Source of the DNA: Coriobacteriales bacterium
GTDB taxonomy: Bacteria > Actinomycetota > Coriobacteriia > Coriobacteriales > QAMH01
Assembly (NCBI GenBank): GCA_051876145.1
Contig: JBJEHP010000263.1
Span: forward strand, 1-25,637
Reading direction: 5' to 3'
Length of the DNA: 25,637 bases
Of the stretch, positions 7,784-25,637 are shown in pieces. The notes under the pieces were generated by a model, which had not been told where the DNA came from, made no database searches, and worked only from the letters and a program-made list of their open reading frames with translations. The stretch's first letter is position 1, and every line of letters starts with the position of its first letter. Position numbers and translations under genes: made by a program.

Positions 7784-7909
7784 TCTATAAAATTCTACTA
7801 CGTCGAACGAGCTTCTTTCCGAGCATGAAAGCGCAGGCGAGGCCCCACAATGGACAGTGAGAAAGCGCGCGAGGCGCGCATGGAGAGACTGTTCGTGGAA
7901 GGGAGCCAA

Positions 7910-10324
7910 ATGTCTGAGGAAAAATGGGTTTGCACGGCATGTCCTGGATGGGGCGATCACGAGTTCTGCGCGATCAAGACCATCGTTTCCGATGGCAAGA
8001 TCGTCCGCACCGAGGCGGTCGACTACACCGGCGCGGAGGCCGGCGAGGGGCATTGCTGCCAGAAGGGCACCGCATCGTGGCGTCAGGTGTATGCCGACGA
8101 CCGCCTGCTGTACCCGCTCAAGCGCGCCGGCGAGCGCGGCGAGGGCAAGTGGGAGCGCATCAGCTGGGACCAGGCACTCGACGAGATCGGCGCCAAGATG
8201 CTCGAGCTTGGCGAGAAGTACGGCCATGACACCATCGCGTTTTGGAACATCACGACCTCGCTGCCGCCGTCGCAGGGGCTCGACACCCTGCTCGGCAACC
8301 GACTGTGCGGCCTGTGGGGCGGCACCGATCCGCTCAACGCGTACGGCCTGGACAACGGCCCGTACTACGCGTCGTATTTCGACCTGGGCGACTTCTACAA
8401 GTACATGATGATCGACCCCGTCAAGTTCGATGCGACGAGCTACCTCATCATCTGGGGCGGCAACCCGGTGGAAAACCAGCAGCGTGTGGCAAAGCACATC
8501 GTCGAGGCCAAGTCGCGTGGGGCGAAGATCGTTGACGTCGGTCTGCTGTTCGATGCCTCTGCGGGCTACGCCGATTGGTTCATCCCGGTCAAGCCCGGCA
8601 GCGACACGGCGCTTGCGCTGTGCATGGCGCGTCAGATTATCGAGCGCGGTGAATACGACCGCGCGTTCATGCAGCAGTACACGGTTGCTCCGCTGCTCGT
8701 CGACGTCGAGACGGGCAAGTTCGCCACCAACGAGGGCTGGTTCTACTACTGGGACGAGGAGTCCGGTTCCGTCAAGCCGACGGCGAAGGGCGCCGAGGAA
8801 TACGAGGGCACGCCGGCCTTCGAGGGCAGCTACGAGCTTGACGGACGCACCTACAAGCCCGCATTCCAGCTGCTCAAGGAGCATGTTGCGCCCTATACGC
8901 CCGACTATCAGGAGACGATCACGGGTGTTCCCGCGGCAGATGCGGTCAAGCTCGGCGAGGAGTACTCGTCGCACCGCCCGGCGTTCATCGTCGGCGCGCT
9001 CGGCATGCGCTACCAGAACCAGGGCGATGCGTACCGCGCGTTCTATCTGCTCGGCATGCTCACGGGCAACCTGGGCAGCGCCGCCGGCGGCGTCACGAGC
9101 GAAATCCAGCCGTGCGGCTGGCCGCTCGGCTTCAACAACCCGGCGGTCATCTTCCCCAACGGCCGCGAGGCGGACAAGACCGTCTTCGTCAAGAACGGCG
9201 ACTTTTTCGAGGCGGCCAAGGAAGGCAAGTACAAGGGCTTCATCAAGGTGGCTGGCAACCCGGTCCACAATTGCCCCAACCGCAGCCGCTGGATCGAGGA
9301 CACCTTCCCGCAGATGGAGCTCATCGTCGACGTGGACGTGTGGATGACCGATACGGGCGAGTACTCCGACTACGTCCTCCCGGCGTGCATGCCGTTCGAG
9401 CGCGAGGAGCTCATCGCCGCGGCGCAGTACAACCATGTGGTGCTGCAGGAGCCGGCCGTCGAGCCGTGCGGCGAGTGCAAGGATCCGTCGTTCATCTACG
9501 GCGGCCTGGCCGAGCGCATCGGGCTGGGTGAATATTTCCGCAACGAGGCTGGCGAGCCGATGGTGGCGGCCGACTGGATCCGCATGCGCCTGAACTCCCC
9601 GCAGCCGTTCCTGGCAAAGATCGACCCGCCGCTCACCTACGAGCGCCTGAAGGAGGAGAAGATCATCCGTGCGGCCGTGCCGCCTATCCCGTGGGATCCG
9701 TTCTTTGGCATGAAGTTCGCCACGCAGACGGGCCACATGGAGTTCTACTCGGAGCGCCTGAACACCATCGGGCTGCCCATGGCGACGTACCACGAGCCCT
9801 ACGAGGTTCCCACCAACGCGAGCCTCGCGAACGGCACTGCCAAGCACCGCTACCAGTTCTTCAGCGGGCGCCAGCGCTTCTTCATGCAGTCGATGTTCAC
9901 GGATGACCCCGTGATGGCCGAGCTCTCGGGCGGCAAGCCCACCGGGCGCATCAACCCGATTGACGCGGAGGCCGAGGGCATCGTCGACGGCGACAGGTGC
10001 GAGGTCTTCAACGAGCGCGGGCACGTGGTGATCGAGATGCGCCTGGACCAGGCGATTCCGCCGGGAACGGTGCAAGTGTGGTTTGGCTGGCGCAAGCGCC
10101 AGTTCGATGCCAACGAGGGCGAGGGCAGCGGCATGTACTCCGAGCTGCTCGTTCCGCTGGGCGATAACGACACGCTCGACGAGGCAGCGCAGTACTGGTA
10201 CCAGTGCGTGCGCGAGGATGGCGCCGTCGGCTACATCTTGGGCGGCACCTCGTACTCCGCGATGGCGGGTGCGTGGGACACCATCTGGGACTGCGCGTGC
10301 GACATCCGCAAGATCGAAGCTTAG
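7910..10324 (+). CDS. Molybdopterin (bis-MGD) oxidoreductase catalytic subunit, DMSO reductase superfamily, no export signal
   Basis: Family motifs RLLYPLKR...GEGKWERISWDQALDEI, IIWGGNP, WFIPVKPGSDTALAL and TDTGEYSDYVLPA, plus a C-terminal molybdopterin-dinucleotide domain (INPIDAEAEGIVDGD). RBS GGGAG favours the ATG at 7910 over 7850. Confidence 0.92.
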   Translation: MSEEKWVCTACPGWGDHEFCAIKTIVSDGKIVRTEAVDYTGAEAGEGHCCQKGTASWRQVYADDRLLYPLKRAGERGEGKWERISWDQALDEIGAKMLELGEKYGHDTIAFWNITTSLPPSQGLDTLLGNRLCGLWGGTDPLNAYGLDNGPYYASYFDLGDFYKYMMIDPVKFDATSYLIIWGGNPVENQQRVAKHIVEAKSRGAKIVDVGLLFDASAGYADWFIPVKPGSDTALALCMARQIIERGEYDRAFMQQYTVAPLLVDVETGKFATNEGWFYYWDEESGSVKPTAKGAEEYEGTPAFEGSYELDGRTYKPAFQLLKEHVAPYTPDYQETITGVPAADAVKLGEEYSSHRPAFIVGALGMRYQNQGDAYRAFYLLGMLTGNLGSAAGGVTSEIQPCGWPLGFNNPAVIFPNGREADKTVFVKNGDFFEAAKEGKYKGFIKVAGNPVHNCPNRSRWIEDTFPQMELIVDVDVWMTDTGEYSDYVLPACMPFEREELIAAAQYNHVVLQEPAVEPCGECKDPSFIYGGLAERIGLGEYFRNEAGEPMVAADWIRMRLNSPQPFLAKIDPPLTYERLKEEKIIRAAVPPIPWDPFFGMKFATQTGHMEFYSERLNTIGLPMATYHEPYEVPTNASLANGTAKHRYQFFSGRQRFFMQSMFTDDPVMAELSGGKPTGRINPIDAEAEGIVDGDRCEVFNERGHVVIEMRLDQAIPPGTVQVWFGWRKRQFDANEGEGSGMYSELLVPLGDNDTLDEAAQYWYQCVREDGAVGYILGGTSYSAMAGAWDTIWDCACDIRKIEA

Positions 10325-10337
10325 GAGGGAGATGACA

Positions 10338-10796
10338 ATGGCTGACAAGAACACCATCTGGGCGCATTCGCCCGCTCAAGACGAAGTGACCGACGATACG
10401 ATCTTTGTCGACCTGCTGCGTTGCACGGGCTGCTGGACGTGCGCGTTGTCGTGCATGACGGGCAACAAGCTCAAAGACGGGCAGTACTTCGTCAACGTGC
10501 GCACGCTCGGCAGCGGCGAGGGCATCGACCGTCCGGCGGGTGTGTGGCCCGACCTGCACATGTCGTGGATGCCGTACTACACGCATGCGTGCATCAAGTG
10601 CAAGCCCCGCACCGATGCCGGCGAGCTTCCGTACTGCGTGAAGAGCTGCCCCAACAAGGCGCTTGCCTTTGGTCCCGATGCCGTCGAGAAGATCGAGGCG
10701 GCGCGCAAACGCGGTGCGCGCATCTACCGTCTTCCGGCGTGGGAGCATTCGAAGGAAAACGTCATCTACGCGAGTCCCGACCGCGAGATTATCTAG
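10338..10796 (+). CDS. Small iron-sulfur subunit (probably 2x[4Fe-4S]) of the molybdoenzyme
   Basis: CTGCWTCALSC, CIKC and CVKSCP give 8 Cys. RBS AGGAGG overlaps the upstream stop. 152 aa, no TM helix. Confidence 0.88.
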   Translation: MADKNTIWAHSPAQDEVTDDTIFVDLLRCTGCWTCALSCMTGNKLKDGQYFVNVRTLGSGEGIDRPAGVWPDLHMSWMPYYTHACIKCKPRTDAGELPYCVKSCPNKALAFGPDAVEKIEAARKRGARIYRLPAWEHSKENVIYASPDREII

Positions 10797-10835
10797 GCGG
10801 ATTGTGGTTTAGACGTTCGAGGGGGGCGGCTTGCG

Positions 10836-11092
10836 GTGACACCGCGGCCGCCTCCTGGTCGTTTTCGCGCCATGCCGGGTGGCCATTGGCGGCGTGGCGT
10901 GCCAAACGCCCATTGGCGGGTCGCGGTGGCGCGGAATCAACCATCACCGGGATGGCGCGCCAAACGCCCATTGGCGGGTCGCGGTGGCGTGGGATCGGCC
11001 ATCACCGGGATGGCATGCCAAACGCCCATTGGCGGGTCGCGGTGGCGTGGGATCGGCCATCACCGGGATGGCATGCCAAACGGCCACTGGCG
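10836..11092 (+). repeat. Intergenic modular repeat, cluster 3 (leader plus about 3.3 tandem 58-bp units)
   Basis: Units start at 10901, 10959, 11017 and 11075. Consensus GCCAAACGCCCATTGGCGGGTCGCGGTGGCGTGGGATCGGCCATCACCGGGATGGCAT. Lies between convergent genes. Confidence 0.92.
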
Positions 11093-11131
11093 CCCCCCCG
11101 TGGCGGCCTGGACCCGTCGTTGGCGGCGTCC

Positions 11132-11371
11132 TTAGCGGCTCAATGCCTGCAATACCCGGGCGAGACGGAGTTCGTACTCGAGGTCATGGAGGTTGACTTC
11201 CTCGCCATCGATGAACAAGCGCGACGGACGGGGGCCGGAGATTCCGCCGCCGCCCGGCTCGATGCTCTTGGTTACATCGGCGCCGATGCCCGCGTACTGC
11301 GCCGCGGCAATGACGCGCTCGAAGAGCCAGTCAGCGTCTCCGTTCTGGTAGCCCTTGATCTCGATTTTCAT
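11132..11371 (-). CDS. Small thioredoxin-like protein (MTH895 / redox-active disulfide protein 2-like) lacking CxxC
   Basis: The pattern MKIEIKG...L.E.V..A...AGI.A.V.K...LFIDGEEV matches the family by eye. It has an RBS and lies downstream of an ArsR gene, the usual context. No Cys residues. Confidence 0.6.
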   Translation of the reverse strand: MKIEIKGYQNGDADWLFERVIAAAQYAGIGADVTKSIEPGGGGISGPRPSRLFIDGEEVNLHDLEYELRLARVLQALSR

Positions 11372-11388
11372 GGCTTCCGCCCTTTCCC

Positions 11389-11404
11389 ATCAAAAAATTT
11401 TGAT
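11389..11404. promoter_or_regulatory. ArsR-type operator ATCAA-N6-TTGAT
   Basis: Perfect ATCAA-AAAATT-TTGAT just upstream of the thioredoxin-like gene. Confidence 0.65.
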
Positions 11405-11445
11405 ATATCGAATACAGCGAACCTGCGGTGATGACACCTGCGCGC

Positions 11446-11757
11446 CTAGTCGCACGCGGGGTTGTGCGTTGCCACGCCCTCGACTTTCGTGAGCTCCGCG
11501 AGCCGTGCGATGGCGTGCGCCGCGCCGTCGGGGTTGATGGAGTAATACGTCCACTTGCCCTCTTGACGTGCGTTGACGATGCCCGACTCGACCAGGATCT
11601 TCATGTGGTGCGAGAGGTTGGACTGGCTGATCTGAATGTGCTCGAGCAGGTCGCACGCGCACTTCTCGCCCGTGCGCAGGCGCTCGAGCGCCTGGAGGCG
11701 ATACTCGTTGCAGAACGCCTTGAACACCGTGGCGTCCACTTGAATTTGCTCGTCCAC
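11446..11757 (-). CDS. arsR: ArsR/SmtB-family metalloid-sensing repressor
   Basis: FKAFCNEYRLQAL, EKCACDL (alpha3 Cys motif), SQSNLSHHMKIL and RQEGKWTYYSI. GTG at 11757 has a G-rich RBS; ATG at 11769 is an alternative start. Confidence 0.88.
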   Translation of the reverse strand: MDEQIQVDATVFKAFCNEYRLQALERLRTGEKCACDLLEHIQISQSNLSHHMKILVESGIVNARQEGKWTYYSINPDGAAHAIARLAELTKVEGVATHNPACD

Positions 11758-11773
11758 GTGGCCCCCCATTCAA

Positions 11774-11789
11774 ATCGAATTGTTTTGAT
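11774..11789. promoter_or_regulatory. ArsR-type operator, copy 2 (ATCGA-N6-TTGAT)
   Basis: One mismatch from the 11389 box; directly upstream of arsR. Confidence 0.6.
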
Positions 11790-11829
11790 ACGTTGATGAT
11801 ACTGGCAGCCTCGGCCGAGTCAAGGTCAT

Positions 11830-11845
11830 ATCAAAATATTTTTAT
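11830..11845. promoter_or_regulatory. ArsR-type operator, copy 3 (ATCAA-N6-TTTAT)
   Basis: One mismatch from the 11389 box, with an AT-rich spacer AATATT. Confidence 0.5.
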
Positions 11846-11924
11846 GCGAACGCCTCTCCTCGAAGCGTTTTCCCGCAAGGGGATTGCTTTCGGGGTGTCC
11901 ACGCCCAAGACACGCAGGCAAGCG

Positions 11925-11980
11925 AAAAGCCGCACGCCACGGCGCTGGGGACATGCCCCTCGCGCGTGACGTGCGGCTTT
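11925..11980 (-). terminator. Long hairpin downstream of fdhF, probable terminator
   Basis: AAAGCCGCACG (11926-11936) pairs with CGTGCGGCTTT (11970-11980) around an inner GGGG/CCCC stem. The minus strand ends in a short T run. Confidence 0.55.
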
Positions 11981-12005
11981 GACAACCGTGCGGTGCGTGG
12001 GACCG

Positions 12006-14717
12006 CTAGAGCTTTGCCACCTGGATGGCGCAGACCTTGTATTCCGGCGCGTGGCTGATCTCGTCGAGCGCCGGGTTGGTGAGCCAGTTGCTGTTGCCGT
12101 CCTGGAAGTGGAACGGCATCCAGGTCTCGCCGGCGCAGGTCTTGCCGGACACGCGCGCGGTCGACTCGATCTGCCCGCGGCGCGACCAGACCCTGACGCG
12201 GTCGCCGTCGGCGATGCCGCGCTGCTGCGCGTCTTGGGTGTTGATCTCGATGAAGGACGTGCCCTGGATCTCGTTCAGGCCCTCGGTGCGCGCCGTCATC
12301 GCGCAGGCGTTGTACTGGTTGATGATGCGGCCGGTGGTGAGCACGAGCGGGTACTCGGCGTCGGGCAGCTCCGCAGACGGGCGGTACTCGGCAGCGGAGA
12401 ACAGGCCCTTGCCGCGCGCGAACTCGCCCACGTGCATGATGGGCGTGCCCGGATGGTCGGGACCGGTGCACGGCCACTGCAGACCGTTGCCACGGACCTC
12501 CTTGCTGTCGAGGCGCGCGTGGCTGATACCCGCGAACGACGGGGTGACCGAGGCGATCTCGTCCATGATCTGGGCGCTTGTAAGCTCGGGCTGCGCGTAC
12601 CCCATGCGGTTCATGATCTGCGTGAAGATCCACGTGTCGAGCTTCTCGTCACCTGCCACCTCGATGGCCTTGCGCACGCGCTGCACGCGGCGCTCGGTGT
12701 TGGTGAACGTGCCCTCCTTCTCCGCAAAGCTGCGGCCGGGCAGCACGACGTCGGCGTACTTGGTGGTCTCGGTCAGGAACAGGTCGTCGATGACCAGGAA
12801 CTCGAGGTTTTCGAGCGCGCGGATGATGTGGTGCGTGTCGGCATCGGTGCGCACCGGGTCCTCGCCAAAGATGAACATGCCCTTGATCTTGCCCTCGATG
12901 GCCGCGGGGAAGCACTCTGTCGCGGTGATGCCGGGTTCCTTGGGCAGGGTGACGCCCCAGGCCTTCTCGAACTTCTCCATGACCTCGGGGCGCACGAGCT
13001 TCTGATAGCCGGGGAAGTCGACGGGCTGCGCGCCCATGTCGCAGGCGCCCTGCACGTTGTTCTGCCCGCGGATGGGGTTGACGCCGCAGCCCTTGCGGCC
13101 GAGCTTGCCCGTGAGCATGGCGAGGTTCGAAAGCCCCATGACGCCTTCGGTGCCGGTCGAGTGCTCGGTCACGCCCAGGCAGTAGATGATCGGGGCGGTC
13201 TTGGCACGCGCGTACATCTCGGCGGCGGCCACGAGGTCGTCGGCGTCGATGTGGCATATCTCCGCCACGCGCTCGGGTGTGTAGTCCTTCACGAGCTCGG
13301 CGAGCTTCTCGTAGCCTTCGGTGCGCTGCTCGATGAACTGCTGGTCGGCGAGCCCCCTCTCGATGATGACGTGCGCCATGCCGTTGGCAAAGGCGACGTT
13401 GGTGCCGGGGCGCAGCTTGAGGTGTATGTCGGCTTTGGAGGAAAGCCAGATGTCGCGCGGGTCGACCACGATGAGGCGCGCGTCGCGCTCGACTGCCTGG
13501 CGGACCTGCATGCCGATGACCGGGTGCGCCTCTTCGATGTTGGAACCGACGAGCATGATGGTCTCGGCGTCGCGCGTGATGTCGGCAATCGTGTTGGTCA
13601 TGGCGCCGGAGCCGAGCGTGATAGCGAGTCCGGACACGGTGGAGGAGTGACAGACGCGGGCGCAGTTGTCGACGTTGTTGGTGCCAAACGCCACGCGCGC
13701 CATCTTCTGGAGCATGTAGACGTCCTCGTTCGTGGAACGCGAGCAGGCAAACGCCGCGAGTGCGCTGCCGCCGTAGGTGGCCTTGAGCTCGGAGAACTTG
13801 GAGGCGACCAGGTCGAGTGCCTCGTCCCAGCTCGCGGGCTCGAGCTCGCCGGTCTGTTTGCTGCGGATCATCGGGGTGCGCAGGCGGTCGGGCGCATCGA
13901 TGAAGTCGAAGCTGCCACTACGCCCCTTGACGCAGGTCAAGCCGTTGTTGGAGGGGCCCTTGGCGCCCTCGACGTCGACGATCTGGTTGTCCTTCACGAT
14001 GAGGTCGAGCTGGCAGCCCGTGCCGCAGTGCGGGCAGGTGGTGCGCACGCGGTGCGTCTCCCAGGCGCGGTAGTGCCGGCGGCGCTTGACGGTGAGGGCG
14101 CCGGTCGGGCACGCCTGCGCGCAGTTGCCGCACGACTCGCACATCGTCGTCTTCCAGTCCTCGCCGAACGGCGCCAGGATGGTCGTGCGCATGCCGCGGT
14201 TGCCGGCGCGCAGCGTGTGGTTGCACGCGAGCTTGTTGCACGCGCCGATGCAGCGCTGGCAGCGGATGCACAGGTTGGCGTTGTAGGAGAGGAACGGGTT
14301 GCTGTCGAGGATGGGCTCGTTTTTCTCCGCGCGTGGGTAGGGCGTCTCTGTCACGCCGTAGTCGCGGCACAGGTCCTGCAGCTGGCAGGCGCCGTTTTTG
14401 GCGCACGAGAAGCAGAAGTCCGTCGTGGACAGGCCGTGGTCGGCGATGAGCAGCTGCAAGATGCCCTTGCGCTGCGCGATGACGCGCGGGGAGTCGGTGA
14501 GGATGCGCATGCCGTCTTGGACCTGGGTGTTGCAGGCAGTGACGAGGGCGTCTTGCCCCTCGAGCTCGACCGAGCAGATGCGGCACGAGCCGATGGCGTT
14601 TGCCCCGCGCAGGAAGCACAGCGTGGGGATCTTGAAGCCGGCCTTGCCGGCAGCGGCGAGGATCGTCATCCCCTCGCGCGCGGTGACAGCCTGGCCGTTG
14701 ATGGTGAGGTTAAGCAT
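12006..14717 (-). CDS. fdhF: Formate dehydrogenase alpha subunit (Cys-ligand type) with N-terminal [2Fe-2S]/[4Fe-4S] module
   Basis: IPTLC...GSCRIC...TAC ([2Fe-2S]), H..FCFSC...C, CIRCQRC and CESCGNC clusters, and TTCPHCGTGC...CVKG. Active-site NCARVCHS and IRGQNNVQGACDMG. 903 aa. Confidence 0.93.
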   Translation of the reverse strand: MLNLTINGQAVTAREGMTILAAAGKAGFKIPTLCFLRGANAIGSCRICSVELEGQDALVTACNTQVQDGMRILTDSPRVIAQRKGILQLLIADHGLSTTDFCFSCAKNGACQLQDLCRDYGVTETPYPRAEKNEPILDSNPFLSYNANLCIRCQRCIGACNKLACNHTLRAGNRGMRTTILAPFGEDWKTTMCESCGNCAQACPTGALTVKRRRHYRAWETHRVRTTCPHCGTGCQLDLIVKDNQIVDVEGAKGPSNNGLTCVKGRSGSFDFIDAPDRLRTPMIRSKQTGELEPASWDEALDLVASKFSELKATYGGSALAAFACSRSTNEDVYMLQKMARVAFGTNNVDNCARVCHSSTVSGLAITLGSGAMTNTIADITRDAETIMLVGSNIEEAHPVIGMQVRQAVERDARLIVVDPRDIWLSSKADIHLKLRPGTNVAFANGMAHVIIERGLADQQFIEQRTEGYEKLAELVKDYTPERVAEICHIDADDLVAAAEMYARAKTAPIIYCLGVTEHSTGTEGVMGLSNLAMLTGKLGRKGCGVNPIRGQNNVQGACDMGAQPVDFPGYQKLVRPEVMEKFEKAWGVTLPKEPGITATECFPAAIEGKIKGMFIFGEDPVRTDADTHHIIRALENLEFLVIDDLFLTETTKYADVVLPGRSFAEKEGTFTNTERRVQRVRKAIEVAGDEKLDTWIFTQIMNRMGYAQPELTSAQIMDEIASVTPSFAGISHARLDSKEVRGNGLQWPCTGPDHPGTPIMHVGEFARGKGLFSAAEYRPSAELPDAEYPLVLTTGRIINQYNACAMTARTEGLNEIQGTSFIEINTQDAQQRGIADGDRVRVWSRRGQIESTARVSGKTCAGETWMPFHFQDGNSNWLTNPALDEISHAPEYKVCAIQVAKL

Positions 14718-16738: not shown

Positions 16739-18502
16739 CTACTCGCGGTAGAGGCTGATCGCCAGGGGGAGGTACTTGATGGCGTACTTGTAGTAGGTAT
16801 ACAGCCAGTCGCCGACATAGTCGCCCTCGGACTCCTTCTGCAGCGCCCAAACGTACCAGCACCAGCCCGCCAGCCCCACGTACGCGAGGTTGTGGCGCCG
16901 CTCCTCGAGCGTCGGCGTGCGCCCGAAGTAGCTCTCAAGCGCGCGCTGCGCCTCGTCCTCGCCGAGCATGCACGTGACGACGAAGGTGCCGTAGTCGCTC
17001 GCGTAGTCGGACATGCCCGCGTACTCCCAGTCGATGAGCGACAGGCTGCCCGCCTTGTCGTAGAGCAGGTTCAGGTTGAAGAAGTCGTTGTGCGTCAGGC
17101 AGACGCGCGCGCCGTCCAGGTCCGCGAGCCGCTTGGCCTCGATGGCCTGCGCCTTGAGTTCCTCGTAGCCCGTGATGTCGATGGGCCCTTTCTCGAGCAG
17201 CAGTTTCTCGTACTTCAGGCCCTCCTCCAAGTAGTCGAAGTGCCGGTCGAGCCGCGCGGTCTGCGCGTGCAGTTTGCGTGCGATGCCCATCGCATCGGCC
17301 ACCTGCGCCTCGTCGTGCGGGTCGAGCTCGCGGCAGTCGGTGATGAAGCGCGAGATCTTCCAGCCCTGCGCGGGGTCCTCGTAGATGTAGGTGCCGTCGA
17401 TGCCGATCGACTTGGCGAGCTCGAGCGCCTGGACCTCGGCGGTGCGGTCGATCATCTGGTCGGTGCCCACGCCGGGGTGGCGGTACACGTACGAGCCGCT
17501 GTTGGTGGAGAAGTGGCAGGAAAGGTTCGTAAGTCCCTTCTTGAGCGGGTACACGTCGTGAATCTCGGACTTGGTGCAGCCGAGCACACGGCAGATGTTG
17601 TCGAATATCTTCGAGTCGACGTTCTCGAGGAACAGGGGGTCGAACTCCTTCAGCTCGTCGAGCGAGTCAAACTCGAAGATCGTGCCCGCGTCGTAGCGCC
17701 TGACCTCCATGTCGAGCTCGTCCACGTGGTCGATGAACAGCTCTTCCCACAGCTTGTCCGTTGTACGCGGGTCGTCATATTCCGCCACGAGGATCTCGGC
17801 GAAGCGCTCGGAGAACGCGCGGTCGAAATACGCGTGCCCGATCATGTACCACGCGTTGCTTCCGCCGATGTGCACGCCGGTGATGCGCTGTTTGGAATCG
17901 AACTCCAGGCACCACTCCTTGGTGGGGCCTTCCGAGAACTCGGCGGCGTAGTACGCCTTCCACACGTACGGCTCGAAGGGGTTTTGGGTGAAGTAGTCGT
18001 CCGACGAGCAGATGTAGGTGTTGCCGAGCATCTCGCGCACGCGCATGAGCGTCGAGTTGTTGTTGCGCGACGCGAACTCCTGGTTGACGACGATCTTCAC
18101 GCCGAGCTTTTGCTCCAGGTAGAAGAAGAGCTCCTTCTTGTAGCCCACGACGACGGCGATATCGGTGATACCCGCCTCGTGGAGCTGGCGGATCTGCCGT
18201 TCGATGAGGACCTCGCCACGCACGTTGAGCAGGCCCTTGGGCTTCTCGTACGAGATGGGGGCAAAGCGTGTCGACATGCCGGCGGCCATGATGACCGCGT
18301 TGTCGACCCGGTAGGGAGCGAGCTCTGCCAGCCCGCGTTCGTTGAGGACGCCATCTTCCACGAGCTTGGCGCTGGCGAGTTGGCGGACGGTCTTGTTTGC
18401 CGAGCCGAGCGAGACGCCCATGGCTTCGGCCAGCTCACGCTGGGTGAGGCCGGGGTTGTTCTTGAGGGCGAGCAGGGCGTCGAATTCTTTTTTGTCGAGC
18501 AT
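16739..18502 (-). CDS. licCA: HTH-CTP:phosphocholine cytidylyltransferase (LicC-like)-choline/ethanolamine kinase (LicA-like) fusion
   Basis: N-terminal HTH (LTQRELAEAMGVSLGSANKTVRQL). LicC motif NAVIMAAGMSTRFAPISYEKPKGLL. Kinase motifs KGLTN, THNDFFNLN and LIDWEYAG. RBS AAGGA favours the ATG at 18502; 587 aa. Confidence 0.88.
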   Translation of the reverse strand: MLDKKEFDALLALKNNPGLTQRELAEAMGVSLGSANKTVRQLASAKLVEDGVLNERGLAELAPYRVDNAVIMAAGMSTRFAPISYEKPKGLLNVRGEVLIERQIRQLHEAGITDIAVVVGYKKELFFYLEQKLGVKIVVNQEFASRNNNSTLMRVREMLGNTYICSSDDYFTQNPFEPYVWKAYYAAEFSEGPTKEWCLEFDSKQRITGVHIGGSNAWYMIGHAYFDRAFSERFAEILVAEYDDPRTTDKLWEELFIDHVDELDMEVRRYDAGTIFEFDSLDELKEFDPLFLENVDSKIFDNICRVLGCTKSEIHDVYPLKKGLTNLSCHFSTNSGSYVYRHPGVGTDQMIDRTAEVQALELAKSIGIDGTYIYEDPAQGWKISRFITDCRELDPHDEAQVADAMGIARKLHAQTARLDRHFDYLEEGLKYEKLLLEKGPIDITGYEELKAQAIEAKRLADLDGARVCLTHNDFFNLNLLYDKAGSLSLIDWEYAGMSDYASDYGTFVVTCMLGEDEAQRALESYFGRTPTLEERRHNLAYVGLAGWCWYVWALQKESEGDYVGDWLYTYYKYAIKYLPLAISLYRE

Positions 18503-18534
18503 GCGGTTCCTTGTCATGTTTAATGCTGATACAA

Positions 18535-18615: not shown

Positions 18616-19746
18616 ATGGGGACTGGACCTGCAGATATCGAGCGCCTGCGCGCACAGCGGCGCAAGCGGTACTTTGTGCGCGGAGTCGCCTTTGCCATCG
18701 CGTCGGGCATCTGCTATGGGCTCTACACCGGCTTTCTCACGCTGGGCGAGACGCAGGGCGTATGGGGTCCCTGGTTTGCGGGCGAATCTTGGGGCGCGGG
18801 CAATCCGCCGCTGAGCGCGTTCGCGATCACCTTCGTGCTCGCAGCGCTCGCCGCCGGCCTCAACGACTGTTTCAGCGGCGTCTGGTCGATTGCGCTATGC
18901 GCGAAAAACGGCCAGCTCGGCGACCTGGTCAAGACCGTCAAGACGAGGCCGGGCCGCATCATGATTGTGTGCGCGATCGTGGGCGGGCCGCTTGCGACCA
19001 CCGCCTACGTCATCGGCCTCAACTCCGCGACCGCCGCGGGAAACCCCGGCGTTATCGTCCCAATTGCGGCGCTCAACTGCGCCATCGGCGCGGTGCTGGG
19101 GCGCGTCTTCTTCAAGCAGGAGTTGGGCGCCCACAAGGTGCTCGGCATCCTTATCTGCCTGTGCGCGGGCGCGGTCATCGGGGGGACGAGCTTCGGCGCG
19201 ATGGGCGGTGAGGCGGCGCTCGGGTGCCTGTTCGCGTTCGTGGCGGCGTTTGGCTGGGGCTTCGAGGGATGCGTCGCAGGCTTTGGCACGATCCTCATCG
19301 ACTACCGCATCGGCATCGCGATCCGCGAGACGACCGCGGGTGTGCTCGAGCTGCTCGTACTGTTCCCGCTGCTCGCGGCGATCGGCGGCGACATCGCGGC
19401 GGTGCCCGGTATTGCCGCGGCGGCGTTTTCCAGCCCGGCGCTCCTCATCTTCGTGGTGTCGGGCTTCTTCACGATGCCGGCGTATTCGTTCTGGTACAAG
19501 GGCAACTCGATGTGCGGCGCGGCGCTCGGCATGGCATGCAACGGCATGTACGCGTTCTGGGGCCCGTTCTTTATCTGGATCATCATGGGCGTGCTGAACC
19601 TGGGCGGCCTGGCGGCGAGCTATCCGCCGCTCGAGCCCGTGCAATGGGCAGGCGCGCTCGTCATGGTGGTGGGCATCTTCTGCATCGCCATCAACCCCGC
19701 CAAGCTTTTCGCGAAGGACAGAAAGGCGGTTGCAGATGCGCAATAA
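18616..19746 (+). CDS. DMT/EamA-superfamily permease, functionally LicB-like (choline/amino-alcohol uptake inferred from context)
   Basis: About 10 TM helices in two repeats (AIASGICYG...GAVLGRVFFKQEL...ILICLCAG; AAFGWG...WAGALVMVVGI). GGAGG RBS before the ATG at 18616. Confidence 0.75.
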   Translation: MGTGPADIERLRAQRRKRYFVRGVAFAIASGICYGLYTGFLTLGETQGVWGPWFAGESWGAGNPPLSAFAITFVLAALAAGLNDCFSGVWSIALCAKNGQLGDLVKTVKTRPGRIMIVCAIVGGPLATTAYVIGLNSATAAGNPGVIVPIAALNCAIGAVLGRVFFKQELGAHKVLGILICLCAGAVIGGTSFGAMGGEAALGCLFAFVAAFGWGFEGCVAGFGTILIDYRIGIAIRETTAGVLELLVLFPLLAAIGGDIAAVPGIAAAAFSSPALLIFVVSGFFTMPAYSFWYKGNSMCGAALGMACNGMYAFWGPFFIWIIMGVLNLGGLAASYPPLEPVQWAGALVMVVGIFCIAINPAKLFAKDRKAVADAQ

Positions 19747-20029
19747 GCTGATGCCGCTCTACTACGCCATCGTCAAGCAGTTCATGGATGGCAACGAATA
19801 CGACGCCGCGGATATCGTGGCGCTGCTCGAGCCGAACTACGGCGGATACCGGTTGCTGACGCGCAAGGGCGTGGAGGAGGCGCTTGCGACGGCGAGGGAA
19901 AACGGGCTGCTCGACGAGTCGCGCTACGATGTCGACGATGCCGGTGAGCTGCGCGTCTTCTATCGCGTCAACGACTTTGGACGCGAGATGATCGATCGCT
20001 ACATCGGGATGTACCACAACCCGGCGTAG
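19736..20029 (+). CDS. Small hypothetical protein (97 aa), possibly winged-helix-like
   Basis: Overlaps the permease stop by 11 nt and has an RBS (GAAAGGCGG). The pattern (EEALATARENGLLDESRY...LRVFYRVNDFG) resembles a helix plus wing hairpin. Confidence 0.7.
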   Translation: MRNKLMPLYYAIVKQFMDGNEYDAADIVALLEPNYGGYRLLTRKGVEEALATARENGLLDESRYDVDDAGELRVFYRVNDFGREMIDRYIGMYHNPA

Positions 20030-20118: not shown

Positions 20119-22218
20119 CTAGTCGTTGCTGCGCGGGGCGGGCTCGCCGTTGTAGAACTCGTAATCCCAGTGGACTCCGTCGGGCTTCCAGTCGTTGAAG
20201 TCCAGCGCATCGCCGTCGATCTCCATCTCGGTCATGCGGCTGTCGACCTTGCCGTCGTGGTGCGGGAACAGGAAGTGGCGGATGCGCCCCTTCTCGGGGG
20301 CGCGCCAGGCGGGGTTGCCGTACGTCGAGGCATCGCCCATCGCGGCATACATCACCGTCGGCGCAAAATCGAGATGCCCCGTCTGCACATCCGAGGTCTT
20401 GAGCGGCTCGGCGTCCTGCGCCGCACTCTGCGCCGGTTTCACGAACATGATCGGGTTCGTCGTCTGTTCGGGCAGCTCGGTGCCCCAGTGGTAATCGCCG
20501 TGGTCGGAGGTGACGATGACGGTCGTGCTGTCGTAGAGCCCCAGCTCCTTGAGCTGTCGCAGGTAGTCGGAGACGATGTTCATCGCGCCTTCGGCCTGGT
20601 CTTCGTACGTGCTGTGCACCGACTCGTGCATATCGCTGGTCATGGTGTAGGGGAAGTGCGCGCCGTTCAGGTGGATGAAGCGGAACGAGCCCCTCGACCC
20701 GCGGTCGACGACCTGCAGCTTGTCCCTCATCAGGCTGTCGTGGTAGCGCACGTCGTTGATGAGGTAGGGCATCTTGTTGATGTCGGGGTGGTCGCCCGTG
20801 ATGTCGGTGTTGATGTCGTCGGTGTAGTACCAGAACAGCGGCTTGAGCACCCACGGCGCATCGCGGTACAGGGCGATCTTGGCCATGATGGCGCTCGTGC
20901 CGATCCAGTCGGCGTCTGCGTCGCCGCCCTTCTCGAGCGGGTGCTGGTTGATGGTGAGCGGCTGGACAAAGTCGTAATCTCCGGGAATGCCCATCGTGTC
21001 GGTGTAGACGCCCAGGTCATAGCCCGCATTGTGCAGGTCCTGCAGAAACGTCGAGCGGTGGTAGCGCGTGTCGAGGAATTCGGCAAAGTCGTCGTCGGGC
21101 TTGGGCCAGCTGCCGGTGAGCAGGTAGGGCACGCCGTACTTGGTGGGAACGCCGGAGCCGGTCGCGTTGCGGTAGAACGTGAACCCGGTGAACTCGTCCA
21201 TCATGTGCGGGCGCTCCTTGACGACGTCCAGGTAGCGCGAGGTGTCGTACATGTCGAGCACGAACACGACGATGTTCTTGGAAGGCGACAGCGTGTTGAT
21301 GCCGTCGCCGGTCACGTAGACGCGCCCGTCCTCGCCGCCCTTGCCGGCAGAGGCGGGGTTTGCCGCGCTGATGCCCGCGCCGACGAGCGTGATGACGAGG
21401 AACACCGAGCACAGACCGGTCACGAGCGAGCGCATGCGCTTGGGATGCATCCGCGCGTAGATGATGGTGCCCGCGACGAGCGCCGCCCAGATGAGCGTGT
21501 TGCCGACAAACCACGGCCAGAACTCGAACCAGTCGATGGTGGCGCCGTTTGCCTGCGGCAGCCCCGTGTTCATGAACAGCGCCTGCAGCCAAAAGCCGAT
21601 GCCGATGGCGGCGACGATGGTGCGTGCGATGTCGAACGCGCGGCCGCGCACGAGCGAGATGAGCGCGGCGAGCACGAGCGAGACGATGAGGAAGGTCACG
21701 AGGATGGGGCGCCACACGACGGTGAGGCCGTAGGTGAGGCTGCCCGAGTTGGCCACCATGAGCTCGATCGGGGCGAGGAGCAGCAGGGTGCCGCAGGTGA
21801 ACAGGCACACGATGAGCGAGCGCCAGAACTTCTCGAGGTAGCTGAGCTCGCGCGCCTCGCCGGGCTTGGGCGCGTTGCGCCAGAACCTGCCCAGGCGCTC
21901 GTTTTCGGAGGCGAGGTCCTCGTCGCCCTCGACACGGCGCACGTCGGGGTCGATGACCTTGCCGGCGTTCTCGTCGATGCCGAAGACGCGCACGGCCTTC
22001 TTGCGCAGGCGGCGATACGCCACGCCAAAGACGGCGGACAGCGCCACGGCGACGCCCGCGAGCGCCTGAATCGTGTAGGTCATGACCGAGGGGTCGACGT
22101 AGGCGAGCGCGGGGGCGGGTGCGATAAGGGCCGCGGCCATCAGGCCGCAGGCGACAAGTCCGGCGTCCAACGCGAAGCCGGACGCGGCGCGCACGACGCG
22201 GGTGCTGTTACTGCGCAT
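20119..22218 (-). CDS. Membrane-anchored alkaline-phosphatase/sulfatase-superfamily phosphotransferase (LtaS/EptA-like)
   Basis: Signal-like N-terminus, about 5-6 TM helices, then a soluble domain with VFVLDMYD, PTKYGVPYLLTG (Thr nucleophile position), HLNGAHFPY and TSDHG. GGAGG RBS; overlaps the upstream stop by 11 nt; 699 aa. Confidence 0.8.
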   Translation of the reverse strand: MRSNSTRVVRAASGFALDAGLVACGLMAAALIAPAPALAYVDPSVMTYTIQALAGVAVALSAVFGVAYRRLRKKAVRVFGIDENAGKVIDPDVRRVEGDEDLASENERLGRFWRNAPKPGEARELSYLEKFWRSLIVCLFTCGTLLLLAPIELMVANSGSLTYGLTVVWRPILVTFLIVSLVLAALISLVRGRAFDIARTIVAAIGIGFWLQALFMNTGLPQANGATIDWFEFWPWFVGNTLIWAALVAGTIIYARMHPKRMRSLVTGLCSVFLVITLVGAGISAANPASAGKGGEDGRVYVTGDGINTLSPSKNIVVFVLDMYDTSRYLDVVKERPHMMDEFTGFTFYRNATGSGVPTKYGVPYLLTGSWPKPDDDFAEFLDTRYHRSTFLQDLHNAGYDLGVYTDTMGIPGDYDFVQPLTINQHPLEKGGDADADWIGTSAIMAKIALYRDAPWVLKPLFWYYTDDINTDITGDHPDINKMPYLINDVRYHDSLMRDKLQVVDRGSRGSFRFIHLNGAHFPYTMTSDMHESVHSTYEDQAEGAMNIVSDYLRQLKELGLYDSTTVIVTSDHGDYHWGTELPEQTTNPIMFVKPAQSAAQDAEPLKTSDVQTGHLDFAPTVMYAAMGDASTYGNPAWRAPEKGRIRHFLFPHHDGKVDSRMTEMEIDGDALDFNDWKPDGVHWDYEFYNGEPAPRSND

Positions 22219-24214
22219 GTGCCGCGCCTCCTTCCGCGACGGCAGCGGCGGCCGATTTCGGCATGCCAAGGCCGCTTTTCTCCAGCTTCTTCTCGTACTT
22301 GCTCATGTTGTACTTCTCCCGGATGGGGACCTGGTGGCGCAGGATCGCGGAGAGCAGGTACTCGCCCGCGGCCTCGCCGCCGTGCCCGAGGTTTGCGATG
22401 TGGTCGGCGCGGACGGCGCGCAGGCGCTCGGTCCACTCGTCGGTGTTGGCGAGCATGTGCTCGATGGTGGCGCCCACCTGCGCGACGTCTTCCGGCGCAA
22501 ACGACACGCCGGTCTGGTCGCGCAGCGTGATGTCGGTCGGGGTCTCGCCCAGCTCGCGCCAGTCGGGGTTGTTCACCTTCATGGGGGTGTTGATGTAGAC
22601 GGCGGGTTTGAGCTTGCTAAAGCAGAAGTCGAACGAGATGGTCGACCAGTCGGTGATCATGATGTCGGCGATGTTCGCGGACGACGGCTTGGAGTAGTCG
22701 TCTTCGAAGACGAGCTCCTCGGAGCCCGCGAGCTGCCCGACGCGCGTCTTGAGCGCATCCCAACGCGGACGGTAGCGTTTGACGTACTCGGGGTGGGGGC
22801 GCACGACGATGCGCCATCCGCGGCCGACAAGCGCGCCGACCAGCTCGTCGATGCACGAGTCGAGGATGTTGTCCTCCTGCCACGACGGGCCGATGACCAC
22901 GACCGGGCGCTCGTTGGGCTGGCGGTCGGCCGCCTCCTCGCGTGCGATGGAGCGGTCGAGCATGTCGTAGCCGATGAGCGGGAGGTTCTTCTTGCGGGGA
23001 AGGCCGTAGACCTTCTCGCCCAGGCGGAGCTCTTCGGCCTGGTGGTGGCCGGTGCACAAGATGGTGTCGTAGTTGTCGTAGCCGTGCTTCCAGCCGGTCA
23101 GGTAGAAGCTCGTCATGTGGTGCGGCTCGTAGACGTACTCGATGTCCTTGCGCATGCGGCTGCGCTTGATGTAGTAGTTGTCCAGGTCGTCCTGCGTGGT
23201 CACGACCACGTCGGCGTCCATCTTCATCATGAGGGTGATGGCTTTTTTCTCGCGCACGAAGTAGGGCTGAATGCGCGGGTTGTCCTTGGCTATGTCGAAG
23301 ATGATGTCGTCGGGGTCGTTCGTGACGTAGTGGATGGCCACGTTGGAATGTGCCAGCAGGTACTCGATGCCGCCCTGGAAGAAGCGGTAGTAGTTGGAGC
23401 CCTCGGTGTAGTAGACGATGTGCTTGTTGACCACGTTGAAGAAGCGCTCGTAGTCGGCCTTCTCGCGCTTGGAGAGCGGGTCTTTCTGCCACCACTTCTT
23501 CTTCTCGACCAGCGATTCAAGCGCTTCGACCTCTTTGCGCGACTCCTCGAGGTCGTCGTAGTCAATGTACTTCGCGGGCTTGACGATGAGGTTGCACAGC
23601 ACCTGCACGAGGATGGCGGTGAGGTTCGAGCAGATCCAGTAGAAGGACATGCCGGCGGCGACGAACACGCCCAAGACCAGCGACAGCGCGATGGACAGGC
23701 CATTGGTGAAGTTCTTCTCGGCGTTGGTCTGCTCTTTTTGGAGCGGGTTGATGGCGTTTTGCGCAAAGCCGAGCGCCACGGCGGAGAGGCCGGCCAGCAC
23801 GGGCATGATCCACGACAGGCCGCCGTCGATGGTGGGGACCATGCCGAGGAATTCGGTGCCGGGCGCGCCGCCGTCGGTGACGCCGTGGATGACGTCGACC
23901 AGGCCGAACAGGATGAGCACCTGCACGGCGAGCGGCACGAGCGAGAGCATCGGGTGGTACTTCTTCTCCTTGAAGAGCTCGCTTTGCTTCTCGCCGATAG
24001 TCTCTTTATCGCCGTAGTACTGCACCTTGAGGCGGTTGATGGCGGGCATCACCGTGACCATGACGATGGAGTTCTTCTGACACCATAGCGAAAGCGGCAT
24101 CAAGATGATCTTGCAGATGACGGTAAACAGGAAGATGGAAACCCACCAATTGCCGGTAAGCTGGTAGCACGGCTGCATGATGAGGTTGAGCACGCTCGCG
24201 AGTGCCTCGAACAC
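22208..24214 (-). CDS. yidC: YidC/Oxa1-like insertase domain fused to a CDP-glycerol:glycerophosphate transferase (TagB/TagF-like) domain
   Basis: N-terminal YidC core (GNWWVSIFLFTVICKIILMPL...PLAVQ...FYWICSN). C-terminal TagF-like motifs GPSW, VRPHP and DIMITDWSTISFDF...KPAV. GTG at 24214 with RBS GGGGAGGG; 668 aa in one uninterrupted frame. Confidence 0.85.
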   Translation of the reverse strand: MFEALASVLNLIMQPCYQLTGNWWVSIFLFTVICKIILMPLSLWCQKNSIVMVTVMPAINRLKVQYYGDKETIGEKQSELFKEKKYHPMLSLVPLAVQVLILFGLVDVIHGVTDGGAPGTEFLGMVPTIDGGLSWIMPVLAGLSAVALGFAQNAINPLQKEQTNAEKNFTNGLSIALSLVLGVFVAAGMSFYWICSNLTAILVQVLCNLIVKPAKYIDYDDLEESRKEVEALESLVEKKKWWQKDPLSKREKADYERFFNVVNKHIVYYTEGSNYYRFFQGGIEYLLAHSNVAIHYVTNDPDDIIFDIAKDNPRIQPYFVREKKAITLMMKMDADVVVTTQDDLDNYYIKRSRMRKDIEYVYEPHHMTSFYLTGWKHGYDNYDTILCTGHHQAEELRLGEKVYGLPRKKNLPLIGYDMLDRSIAREEAADRQPNERPVVVIGPSWQEDNILDSCIDELVGALVGRGWRIVVRPHPEYVKRYRPRWDALKTRVGQLAGSEELVFEDDYSKPSSANIADIMITDWSTISFDFCFSKLKPAVYINTPMKVNNPDWRELGETPTDITLRDQTGVSFAPEDVAQVGATIEHMLANTDEWTERLRAVRADHIANLGHGGEAAGEYLLSAILRHQVPIREKYNMSKYEKKLEKSGLGMPKSAAAAVAEGGAAHAQ

Positions 24215-24292
24215 TATGGACCCTCCCCAGGGTGTATGAAAACTGCGGCGCACATCCCAGCGCGCGCAGAAAGCCAGACTAAAAGCCCGTGC

Positions 24293-24409: not shown

Positions 24410-24946
24410 TCACCCTGCGGGCGCGAAAATCCTGCTGAGAACGGCGGCGATGTTCTCTGAGTGCTCTTCGAACCCGTGTGCCGCCCATGCCTCGTAGCAG
24501 CCGAACAACGCTCCCACGAACGCGTCGAGTTCGATGCTGTGCGCTTTGTCGTCGTTTCCGAAGACGTTGTGCACATACTCGGAAACGGCGGTACTGAACG
24601 AATTGCCGAGTCCAGACTTCTGCAGGCATTCGATAAGGTCGGAGTTCTTGCGAAAGAACTCGAGGCAGACGACGAGGTTGTTCATGCCGTAGTAGGACTC
24701 TCCGCTGCTCACGTAGGGGCGCGTCTCGAGTCGGTACTCCTCGACGAGCTCGGACAGGCGCATCGTGAGAATCTCTTCCTTCGAGCTGTAGTTGCGGTAG
24801 AAGGCCATACGCGAGACGCCAGCGCGCTTTGCCAGCTCGGTTATCGAGATCTCGGAGAGCGGCTTTTCGAGCGTCAACTGGATGAGCGCGGTCGTGATGC
24901 ACTCGCGCACGAAGAGCTTGGACGCGCTTGCGTGTTGTTCGGTCAT
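24410..24946 (-). CDS. TetR/AcrR-family transcriptional regulator
   Basis: ITTALIQLTLEKPLSEISITELAKRAGVSRMAFYRNYSSKEEIL. GGAGG RBS before the ATG at 24946; 178 aa. Confidence 0.92.
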   Translation of the reverse strand: MTEQHASASKLFVRECITTALIQLTLEKPLSEISITELAKRAGVSRMAFYRNYSSKEEILTMRLSELVEEYRLETRPYVSSGESYYGMNNLVVCLEFFRKNSDLIECLQKSGLGNSFSTAVSEYVHNVFGNDDKAHSIELDAFVGALFGCYEAWAAHGFEEHSENIAAVLSRIFAPAG

Positions 24947-25004
24947 GAACAATGCCTCCCGTTTTGTCACAGTGGCGTCTGTGCGCTGCTTGGGAAAGAA
25001 CTCT

Positions 25005-25025
25005 AGTGTTTCAATTTGTAACACT
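25005..25025. promoter_or_regulatory. Candidate TetR operator AGTGTTtCAAtTTGtAACACT
   Basis: 21-bp near-perfect palindrome (one mismatched pair) between tetR and the divergent gene. A related half-site TTTGTCACA lies at about 24963. Confidence 0.6.
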
Positions 25026-25050
25026 TGTTTTCCGACCGGACAAACGCGAG

Positions 25051-25637
25051 GTGAGGGCAATCAAAGAGCATGTGGCAAAAGCGCTGAGGGTGGTAACGGC
25101 TCCCCCGGTGCTCGTGACCGTGTTGCTGGCGGTGCTGTTCTGCAGCGAACCCGATGTCGTCTCTACCTGGCAGCAGCTTGTGTGCGCGGTGCTCCTGCTT
25201 GGCGCCGTGCCCGCGCTCGCCTATCCGCTCCAGCGGTTCGTCCCGGGCTTCAAGGACGAGGGACGTGACGGCCAGCGCAAGCTCGCGTTCGTGCTCTCCG
25301 TGGTGGGGTATCTGGTCGGGCTCGTGATGGGCCTGTGCGGGCTCGCGACGAGGGGGCTGCTGCTGATTTACCTCACGTATTTCGTGTCGGTGGTGATGCT
25401 GGTCTTCGTGAACAAGGTCCTGAAGGAAAAAGCGAGCGGACACGCGTGCTCGGTCACGGGGACGCTCGTCTTTGCCGTGTACTTTATTGGGATGGGCTCT
25501 TTGATTCCATGCCTCGTCGTATACGCGGCGATGGCCTGGTCGTCGGTTGTGCTCAAGCGCCATACCGTCCGAAATCTCGTCACGGGCACGCTCGTTTGCC
25601 TGCTCGGCTTCGCCATCGCGCTGATAGTGCTGGGATA
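25051..25637 (+). CDS. PAP2-superfamily-like polytopic membrane protein (3'-truncated by the window; absent from the ORF track)
   Basis: Frame is open to the window end: (V)RAIKEHVAKALRVVTAPP...KEKASGHACSVTG...WSSVVLKRHT. SGH and late-His motifs are PAP2-like; about 6 TM helices. Start is uncertain (GTG 25051 or 25072). Confidence 0.7.
   Translation, partial: MRAIKEHVAKALRVVTAPPVLVTVLLAVLFCSEPDVVSTWQQLVCAVLLLGAVPALAYPLQRFVPGFKDEGRDGQRKLAFVLSVVGYLVGLVMGLCGLATRGLLLIYLTYFVSVVMLVFVNKVLKEKASGHACSVTGTLVFAVYFIGMGSLIPCLVVYAAMAWSSVVLKRHTVRNLVTGTLVCLLGFAIALIVLG

Follow-up and report, generated by a model that had tools for sequence, protein, structure and literature searches.

The YidC/Oxa1 proteins are, to our knowledge, known as protein insertases; their scrambling of lipids has so far been seen in vitro only, and we know of no physiological cargo for it. 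Three-component extracytoplasmic glycosylation systems consist of a cytoplasmic transferase (GtrB/CsbB), a small flippase (GtrA/GtcA) and an outer transferase (GtrV/YfhO), and in Streptococcus pneumoniae and Haemophilus the Lic-1 pathway puts phosphocholine on the cell surface as a decoration. Here we analyse a gene in which a YidC-like membrane core is joined in frame to a phosphotransferase domain resembling TagF. It lies on the minus strand of a 25,637-nt stretch of DNA (contig JBJEHP010000263.1 of the Coriobacteriales assembly GCA_051876145.1), the whole of which we call the window. The end of this fusion gene is overlapped by a second gene, encoding an LtaS-like partner whose N-terminus is a procoat-like element, and the two genes together specify a module of four parts. 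Each of the domains belongs to a known superfamily, and for their combination and the obligate four-part organisation no description was found in the literature searched on YidC with glycerophosphotransferase, LtaS, teichoic, TagF or phosphonate. Our favoured reading, held with slightly better than even confidence, is that the fusion supplies the cytoplasmic and membrane half of a conserved machine of four parts, which adds a phospho-head group to the cell envelope.

The YidC-like::TagF-like fusion gene

A single open reading frame runs on the minus strand from a GTG at 24253 to the stop codon at 22208 (P0001, 681 aa). We number residues from this upstream GTG, and in the likely real protein every number is lower by 13. 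The true start is most likely the GTG at 24214, because the Shine-Dalgarno-like GGGGAGGG lies 6 nt upstream of it, the starts of the homologues align with this position, and a 98%-identical database protein has the 668 aa that this start gives. The first-pass annotation, made from the letters of the window, had proposed an in-frame fusion of YidC with a teichoic-acid-type phosphotransferase at 22208-24214. Its coordinates were correct, and the one open reading frame matches both Pfam families: PF02096 (60KD_IMP, YidC) on residues 36-221 (95.3 bits, cut-off 35, profile positions 1-162 of 163) and PF04464 (Glyphos_transf) on residues 448-552, the latter partially (23.3 bits, cut-off 22.1, profile positions 191-290 of 367). 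Relatives reach up to 52 bits against PF04464, over profile positions 12-292. As had also been said of it, the gene stands away from the rnpA-yidD-jag context, its neighbours being a gene for a TetR-family regulator and the LtaS-like gene. The coordinates of all features are given in Table 1.

We modelled the fusion with AlphaFold2 (AF2) on an alignment of 47 diverse family members (mean predicted local distance difference test, pLDDT, 92.3; predicted template modelling score, pTM, 0.74). Residues 1-219 of the model superpose on B. halodurans YidC (3wo7_B) with a VIA-align Z of 18.3 and a root mean square deviation of 2.7 Å over 199 aligned residues. The features that had been cited in favour of YidC, that is, the core of five transmembrane (TM) helices, the C1 hairpin, the Gln of TM2 and the Y205-W206-x-x-S209-N210 motif, are all present and conserved: Y205 is kept in 46 of the 47 members, W206 in 47 and the TM2 Gln, Q111, in 46. 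A Lys at the groove position that is normally Arg had been noted as well, and K48 (codon 24112-24110) does align opposite R366 of E. coli YidC and the groove Arg of B. halodurans YidC2. As a sign of repurposing, however, this residue does not serve, since Lys is a conservative change there: it occupies the position in 44 of the 47 members, with Arg in the other 3, and in an E. coli YidC whose groove charge had been made essential, R366K, in the R366K/Y517A context, was the sole substitution that worked (PMC8920935). K48 is a conservative variant and not a loss of the groove charge. The groove appears intact, since the charge, the Tyr-Trp pair and the TM2 Gln are retained across members that are 33-45% identical. 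Similarly, the fusion does lack a signal or lipoprotein N-terminus, but this is not distinctive, the housekeeping YidC of the same-genus relative (258 aa) also beginning directly with the amphipathic helix.

The C-terminal half of the protein is a GT-B domain. The top 11 Foldseek matches of model residues 260-630 are TagF chains (3l7j, E 2.6e-11), followed by the TagF-like Cps3D multienzyme 8qoy and by TarL 8va1. A phmmer search of the C-terminal domain alone against the PDB sequences gave nothing useful, and a profile of the domain matched TarL 8va1 at E 7.7e-7, with R-P-H-P-E aligned with k-m-H-P and I-T-D-W-S with I-S-D-Y-S-S. All 47 members share, without exception, H378, R485, H487, P488, D535, W536, S537, K559 and R578, and among these residues are those of the two aligned motifs, R485-P-H487-P and D535-W-S537. 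A free form of this TagF-like subfamily exists too, since numerous proteins of about 380 aa that stand alone match just the transferase domain (residues about 263-635), with 29-35% identity.

The fusion is widespread. A word-indexed search returned 3729 matches, of which the best 120 are 59-98% identical and, by their precomputed Pfam annotation, carry both domains in all cases but one; some of these 120 are named Eggerthellaceae. An exhaustive search among cluster representatives gave 384 proteins at E <= 1e-30, and one cluster of homologues is named Lachnospiraceae. Close stand-alone relatives of the core were not found in a word-indexed search with the YidC part alone, nearly all matches being truncated pieces of fused proteins on short contigs. 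Among 401 sampled genomes of the class, the fusion is present in 29, which belong to 10 genera in three families of one order and are related, not 29 independent events, and it is absent from 372. This conservation, together with the thousands of homologues in Coriobacteriia, disposes of the idea that the fusion is an artefact of assembly.

NCBI names the homologues 'membrane protein insertase YidC', and the fusion is the sole PF02096 match in this assembly, both of which would suit an ordinary insertase, a standard or sole YidC that serves general membrane-protein insertion and happens to have an unusual extension at its C-terminus. We give this explanation next to no credence. The assembly is 87.9% complete and in 352 contigs, dnaA is split across a 1582-bp contig and the start of another contig, and the rnpA-to-gidB block is unassembled. 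A relative from the same genus (L002) has its housekeeping yidC in that block, in the order rnpA-yidD-yidC-jag-gidB beside dnaA, and the housekeeping yidC is missing from this assembly because the block falls in the gap. Of 21 relatives from the family, 19 have a yidC of about 262 aa with a score of about 170 bits. Five closed fusion-bearing genomes have exactly two PF02096 matches each, a housekeeping one of 166-183 bits and a fused one of 90-107 bits, so that a separate housekeeping yidC, which the first-pass annotation had asked to see, is there in every case. Further, 372 of the 401 genomes do without the fusion, and one genome (G015) has an intact housekeeping copy next to none but a broken fusion. 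The fusion also falls under every NCBIfam YidC cut-off, closely for TIGR03592 (82.7 against 84.3) and by far for all the YidC equivalogs, and its core was missed by tblastn with a housekeeping YidC as query. In a tree of fused and stand-alone YidC the fused copies and the others fall on either side of a branch 2.7 substitutions per site long (SH-aLRT 100); the housekeeping copies in it come from Coriobacteriia only, with those of Firmicutes left out, and the tree is uninformative on the origin of the fused clade. The fusion is therefore an accessory paralogue and not the housekeeping insertase; that it might be the sole yidC of the organism is ruled out by the gap beside dnaA and by the five genomes with two copies. 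The public name of its homologues is probably misleading.

The LtaS-like partner and the procoat-like element

The partner gene, whose start overlaps the end of the fusion gene, is translationally coupled to it. Its product has a procoat-like N-terminus, a 5-TM body and an outward-facing domain of the alkaline phosphatase (AP) superfamily, LtaS/PbgA/EptA-like, with seven hydrophobic helices in all. The ecto-domain matches Pfam Sulfatase with 42.2 bits (cut-off 25), and the protein has no NCBIfam match. The best full-length Foldseek matches of the AF2 model (pLDDT 82.8) are PbgA/YejM structures, 6xlp (E 2.8e-11, 670 columns) and 6v8q, with MCR-1 lower. Residue conservation in the partner was computed over 33 and 26 sequences; D322, T359, D572 and H573 are conserved in them and may correspond, judging by motif position and not by superposition, to T300 and the metal ligands of LtaS.

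The partner and the fusion occur in exactly the same 29 of the 401 class genomes, and a homologue of the partner adjoins the fusion gene in the unrelated neighbourhoods L007, L009, L013 and L017. In many representatives the two are joined into single chains of 1150-1545 aa, and this occurs in two orders, YidC-TagF-partner and partner-YidC-TagF. The former is found in Raoultibacter timonensis (WP_244386239.1, 1361 aa, in several assemblies) and in the closed genome G107. In the 13 other genomes of the genus of G107 the fusion frame has 655-708 aa, that is, the gene is separate from that of the partner, so the joining must have happened more than once or very recently. In the partner-YidC-TagF order, the five helices and the ecto-domain run straight into TM1 of the YidC-like core, which fits the out-to-in topology of TM1.

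Three further observations concern the partner. Directly upstream of the Raoultibacter triple fusion there is a second, stand-alone partner paralogue with a YVDPS N-terminus, which scores 510 bits against the partner of the window and has no Pfam match on record. In L007 two partner paralogues stand in tandem. In G015 (L005, contig 9) the fusion is in two pieces, the partner is also in two pieces (one TAA), the housekeeping yidC is intact and the LicCA-like gene described below is lacking, which looks like decay of the whole pathway.

Fusions in both orders show a stable complex, not transport, and this also suits a reading in which the YidC-like core is an anchor or scaffold without a transport role that holds the TagF-like enzyme at the membrane beside the LtaS-like partner, with the lipid-linked product leaving through a different flippase or by scrambling, spontaneous or general. 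Enzymes of the TagF family are peripheral and need membrane association, for which any polytopic domain would do, and in other bacteria LtaS and EptA use ordinary phospholipids and need no dedicated flippase. On the other hand, the groove charge, the Y-W pair, the TM2 Gln and the C1 hairpin are all kept at the 33-45% identity mentioned above, and it is the YidC fold, not any TM bundle, that is used in every architecture seen. No gene for a MOP- or GtrA-type flippase was found beside the pair in the window, L007, L009, L013 or L017, although in L031 a MatE-family (MOP-superfamily) gene lies about 4.5 kb downstream of the fusion gene. We consider a role as anchor only to be unlikely, though worth keeping in mind.

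The first 74 residues of the partner are near-invariant, and the rest of the protein is 28-38% identical. This stretch contains the procoat-like element, which is made up of a signal-like helix ending in A-L-A, the segment Y40-V-D-P-S44-V-M-T-Y48-T-I-Q51 (22066-22101), a TM helix and a basic R-R-L-R-K-K stop, and which we call the YVDPS element. In four loci the gene that directly follows the fusion gene encodes it on its own, as a microprotein of 69-101 aa: it has 101 aa in the Lachnospiraceae locus L016, 69 aa and no leader in L017, and 87 aa in L031, where it follows a partner-YidC-TagF fusion; the fourth locus is L032. The YVDPS element is the fourth part of the module. Its layout is shared with M13 procoat and Pf3 coat, which are substrates of YidC only: a leader ending in A-x-A or none at all, a short acidic segment, one TM helix and a basic C-terminal flank. 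It differs from them in being near-invariant across distant lineages and in being encoded with, or fused to, the module. For these two reasons we suggest that it is a lasting component of the module, as a subunit or functional arm, and not a client in transit.

The same element could be read the other way, with the YidC-like core as a private insertase that serves the YVDPS element, be it the N-terminus of the partner or the microprotein, and with the TagF-like domain merely co-localised. The element has the topology of the classic YidC-only clients, the positive charge of the groove is kept, and in every architecture examined a client-like element is encoded right beside the fusion gene. Nevertheless, a catalytic insertase need not match the stoichiometry of its client, yet the parts are fused in many lineages; the near-invariance of the YVDPS helix goes far beyond the needs of insertion; and the housekeeping YidC present in each of the five closed genomes could insert the element. 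The constant attachment of a CDP-alcohol transferase would also be left unexplained, and we hold a private insertase to be improbable.

Table 1. Features of the window and of two related loci, with the evidence for each.
Feature	Location	Positions	Strand	Evidence or remarks
YidC-like::TagF-like fusion gene	window	22208..24214	(-)	GTG start 24214, TAA stop 22208-22210, 668 aa
Shine-Dalgarno-like GGGGAGGG	window	24221..24228	(-)	6 nt before GTG 24214; read directly from the sequence
YidC/Oxa1 5-TM core, residues 36-221	window	23591..24148	(-)	Pfam, alignments, superposition; EH1 amphipathic helix precedes, C1 hairpin inside
Helical cytoplasmic linker from TM5 to the transferase, residues about 222-262	window	23468..23590	(-)	AF2 secondary structure; conserved K-Y-I-D-Y and REK-x-DY segments
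TagF/TarL-like GT-B phosphotransferase domain, residues about 263-650	window	22304..23467	(-)	PF04464, Foldseek, TarL profile match, VIA-align, conservation
Partner gene, 699 aa	window	20119..22218	(-)	ATG 22218, 11-nt overlap with the end of the fusion gene, GGAAGGAGG upstream
Procoat-like element, partner residues 11-74	window	21997..22188	(-)	alignment; motif scan
Partner ecto-domain, residues about 300-699	window	20122..21321	(-)	conserved D322, D325, T359 (codon 21142-21144), H516, H521, D572, H573
Winged helix-turn-helix (HTH), LicC-like nucleotidyltransferase and LicA-like choline/ethanolamine kinase, one chain	window	16739..18520	(-)	Pfam; start codon uncertain
Polytopic transporter	window	18709..19746	(+)	divergent from the kinase gene; weak EamA (LicB-type) match, E 5.9e-4, below the Pfam cut-off
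99-aa open reading frame	window	19730-20029	(+)	between transporter and partner
TetR-family regulator	window	24410-25060	(-)	directly upstream of the fusion gene, same strand
Triple fusion, one open frame of 1361-1430 aa	L010 (G107)	4464-8753	(-)	
Triple fusion, one open frame of 1361-1430 aa	L015 (Raoultibacter timonensis)	10001-14086	(+)	
Stand-alone partner paralogue	L015	7351-9831	(+)	directly upstream of the triple fusion

Probable head-group supply and a proposed relay across the membrane

Close to the pair, the window carries a gene for a single chain with a winged HTH, a LicC-like and a LicA-like domain, which is the probable supplier of a CDP-activated head group, and an EamA-like polytopic transporter, which is a candidate for the predicted head-group importer. 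In the closed genome G399 one same-strand array begins with HTH-LicC-LicA and continues through an APC permease and a 188-aa gene to the fusion and then the partner. Of the 29 module genomes, 26 have a LicCA-like gene, in many cases adjacent to the module or to a partner paralogue, and a LicCA-like chain with 41-63% identity was found in 91 of the 401 class genomes, 65 of them without the module. The 99-aa open reading frame next to the transporter has the look of a genuine soluble protein; it matches nothing in Pfam or NCBIfam, and it has no detectable relationship with the 188-aa gene that stands at the equivalent place in G399.

This assembly has no PF04464 match other than the fusion and no PF00884 match other than the partner. 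TagD is not evident in it at its 87.9% completeness, the three PF01467 matches being CoaD, NadD and RibF, and LicD (PF04991) was matched neither in this assembly, with the same limit, nor in the closed genome G399. The donor for the TagF-like domain is probably not CDP-glycerol in this genome, and the head group here is probably of choline or ethanolamine type.

These gene contents bear on whether the fusion could be a classical wall-teichoic-acid polymerase, in which the TagF-like domain would build poly(glycerol- or ribitol-phosphate) on a lipid-linked primer, with YidC as its anchor and export by an ABC transporter of the TagGH type. TagF and TarL are indeed the best structural and profile matches; in addition, the Lachnospiraceae locus L016 lies in a teichoic-acid-like cluster with TarI/TarJ-like and TagD-like genes, and L032 has genes for an ABC2-type transporter nearby. 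But in this genome, at its 87.9% completeness, no TagD was found and, apart from the fusion, no PF04464 protein that could be a TagB primase; no ABC2 exporter stands by the pair in the window, L007, L009 or L013; and what invariably accompanies the fusion is an outward-facing phosphotransferase instead of an exporter with an LCP ligase. We regard such a polymerase as very improbable.

For the YidC part the first-pass annotation had named three possible roles, moving a charged lipid-linked headgroup across the membrane, anchoring the enzyme or inserting a partner, with no preference among them. A stable machine of several parts is, in our view, the best frame for these data, because the LtaS-like partner is obligate, fusions occur in both orders, there is a procoat-like fourth part, and genes for head-group activation are linked to the module. 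In such a machine, an imported choline-type amino alcohol would be phosphorylated and CMP-activated by the neighbouring HTH-LicC-LicA enzyme. The TagF-like domain, placed at the cytoplasmic mouth of the YidC groove, would then take the phospho-head group off its CDP donor and attach it to an acceptor hydroxyl embedded in the membrane, probably that of a lipid, and the polar head would cross to the outer leaflet through the hydrated, positively charged YidC-like groove, in which the YVDPS helix of the partner would probably dock. Finally, the putative Thr nucleophile of the partner would take the phospho-head group and deliver it to a surface polymer. We infer the transfer, crossing and surface-placement steps, as well as the identity of the head group. 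The crossing step is plausible because E. coli YidC and other proteins of the Oxa1 family scramble glycerophospholipids in vitro (preprint 10.1101/2023.09.01.555937).

A more specific proposal, which we put forward tentatively and with distinctly less than even confidence, is that the YidC fold acts here as a dedicated conduit, passing a small phospho-head group in place of proteins. The conduit may be a flippase for a lipid-linked phospho-alcohol made by the fused TagF-like domain. In a more radical form, the TagF-like domain would load the Ser or Tyr of the invariant N-terminal Y-V-D-P-S tail, be it that of the microprotein or that of the partner, and the tail would pass through the groove as a covalent shuttle to the outward-facing LtaS-like enzyme.

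Several points weigh against the four-part machine as we have described it. The flipping role of the YidC core is drawn from analogy and architecture only. The VIA-align Z of 20.0 that the transferase domain obtains with TagF is tied with the 19.8 obtained with UDP-GlcNAc 2-epimerases, which are also GT-B proteins, and because of this tie the TagF assignment rests on the Pfam match, which is weak (23.3 bits), and on the TarL profile match. H378, invariant as it is, comes near TarL H300 by spacing alone, in a stretch that is unaligned with TagF H444 or TarL H300. As the genome of the window is incomplete, genes not found there may exist. LicD stands beside another LicCA copy in 4 of the 5 closed module-bearing genomes. 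Finally, the head-group genes vary, with TarI/TarJ-like, TagD-like and LicD genes in L016 and none nearby in L007. Since these genes differ between loci, the head group seems to vary between lineages and the choline-type assignment may hold only for this one.

We had also considered the module as a general replacement of LicD. This is ruled out by the LicD genes of those 4 closed genomes, and the idea holds only for G399 and possibly for the genome of the window.

Comparison with described systems

The module is a natural and widespread case of a YidC fold wired into a small-molecule pathway of the envelope, between a cytoplasmic CDP-alcohol transferase and an outward-facing phosphotransferase, and this arrangement makes the question of a physiological scramblase directly testable. 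Either form of the conduit, if true, would be a new inside-to-outside relay and a new function in the Oxa1 superfamily. The module may further explain how phosphocholine-type groups would reach the surface of gut and oral Coriobacteriia, its carriers including relatives named Eggerthellaceae, Raoultibacter and Atopobium.

With the insertases YidC, SpoIIIJ, YidC2 and Oxa1 (PF02096; B. halodurans YidC2 3WO6/3WO7, E. coli YidC 3WVF/6AL2) the fusion shares the five-TM core, EH1, the C1 hairpin, the positive charge of the groove, the TM2 Gln and the aromatic pair of TM5 with the S-N motif. It departs from housekeeping YidC in carrying a 430-aa enzyme where the basic ribosome-binding tail would be, in having Lys for Arg in 44 of 47 members, in lying outside rnpA-yidD-jag, and in a patchy distribution that tracks the partner enzyme. 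The transferase domain has the GT-B fold of TagF, TarL, TarF and the TagF-like capsule polymerases (PF04464; 3L7I-M, 8VA1, 8QOY), and the C-lobe H-P and (S/T)-D-(Y/W)-S-S motifs with which TarL binds its CDP donor align with the same motifs in the fusion. However, TagF is peripheral, whereas here the transferase is covalently tethered to a polytopic domain, and no TagB, TagD, TagGH or LCP genes accompany it in the window's genome as far as it is assembled. In turn, the partner has in common with LtaS, GacH, EptA (MCR-1), PptA and PbgA a 5-TM body and an outward AP-superfamily domain, in which the partner keeps a conserved Asp, Thr and Asp-His. Its sequence similarity to LtaS, EptA and PbgA is weak, it has two extra N-terminal helices with the YVDPS motif, and it is obligately paired with, or fused to, a YidC-like::TagF-like protein, as none of the characterised members is known to be.

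As for pathways, the LicA-like, LicC-like and EamA-type genes beside the fusion pair recall the Lic-1 phosphocholine pathway (LicB, LicA, LicC, LicD) of Streptococcus pneumoniae and Haemophilus. The kinase and the nucleotidyltransferase are here fused to an HTH, LicD was not found in this assembly or in G399, and the transfer step would be performed by the four-part module outside the membrane. The logic of the proposed model is that of the GtrB/GtrA/GtrV-type systems, in which a lipid carrier is loaded inside, flipped, and its cargo transferred to a surface polymer outside. The two have no homologous parts: in the module the cargo would be a phospho-alcohol and not a sugar, the candidate flippase has the YidC fold, and the parts are fused.

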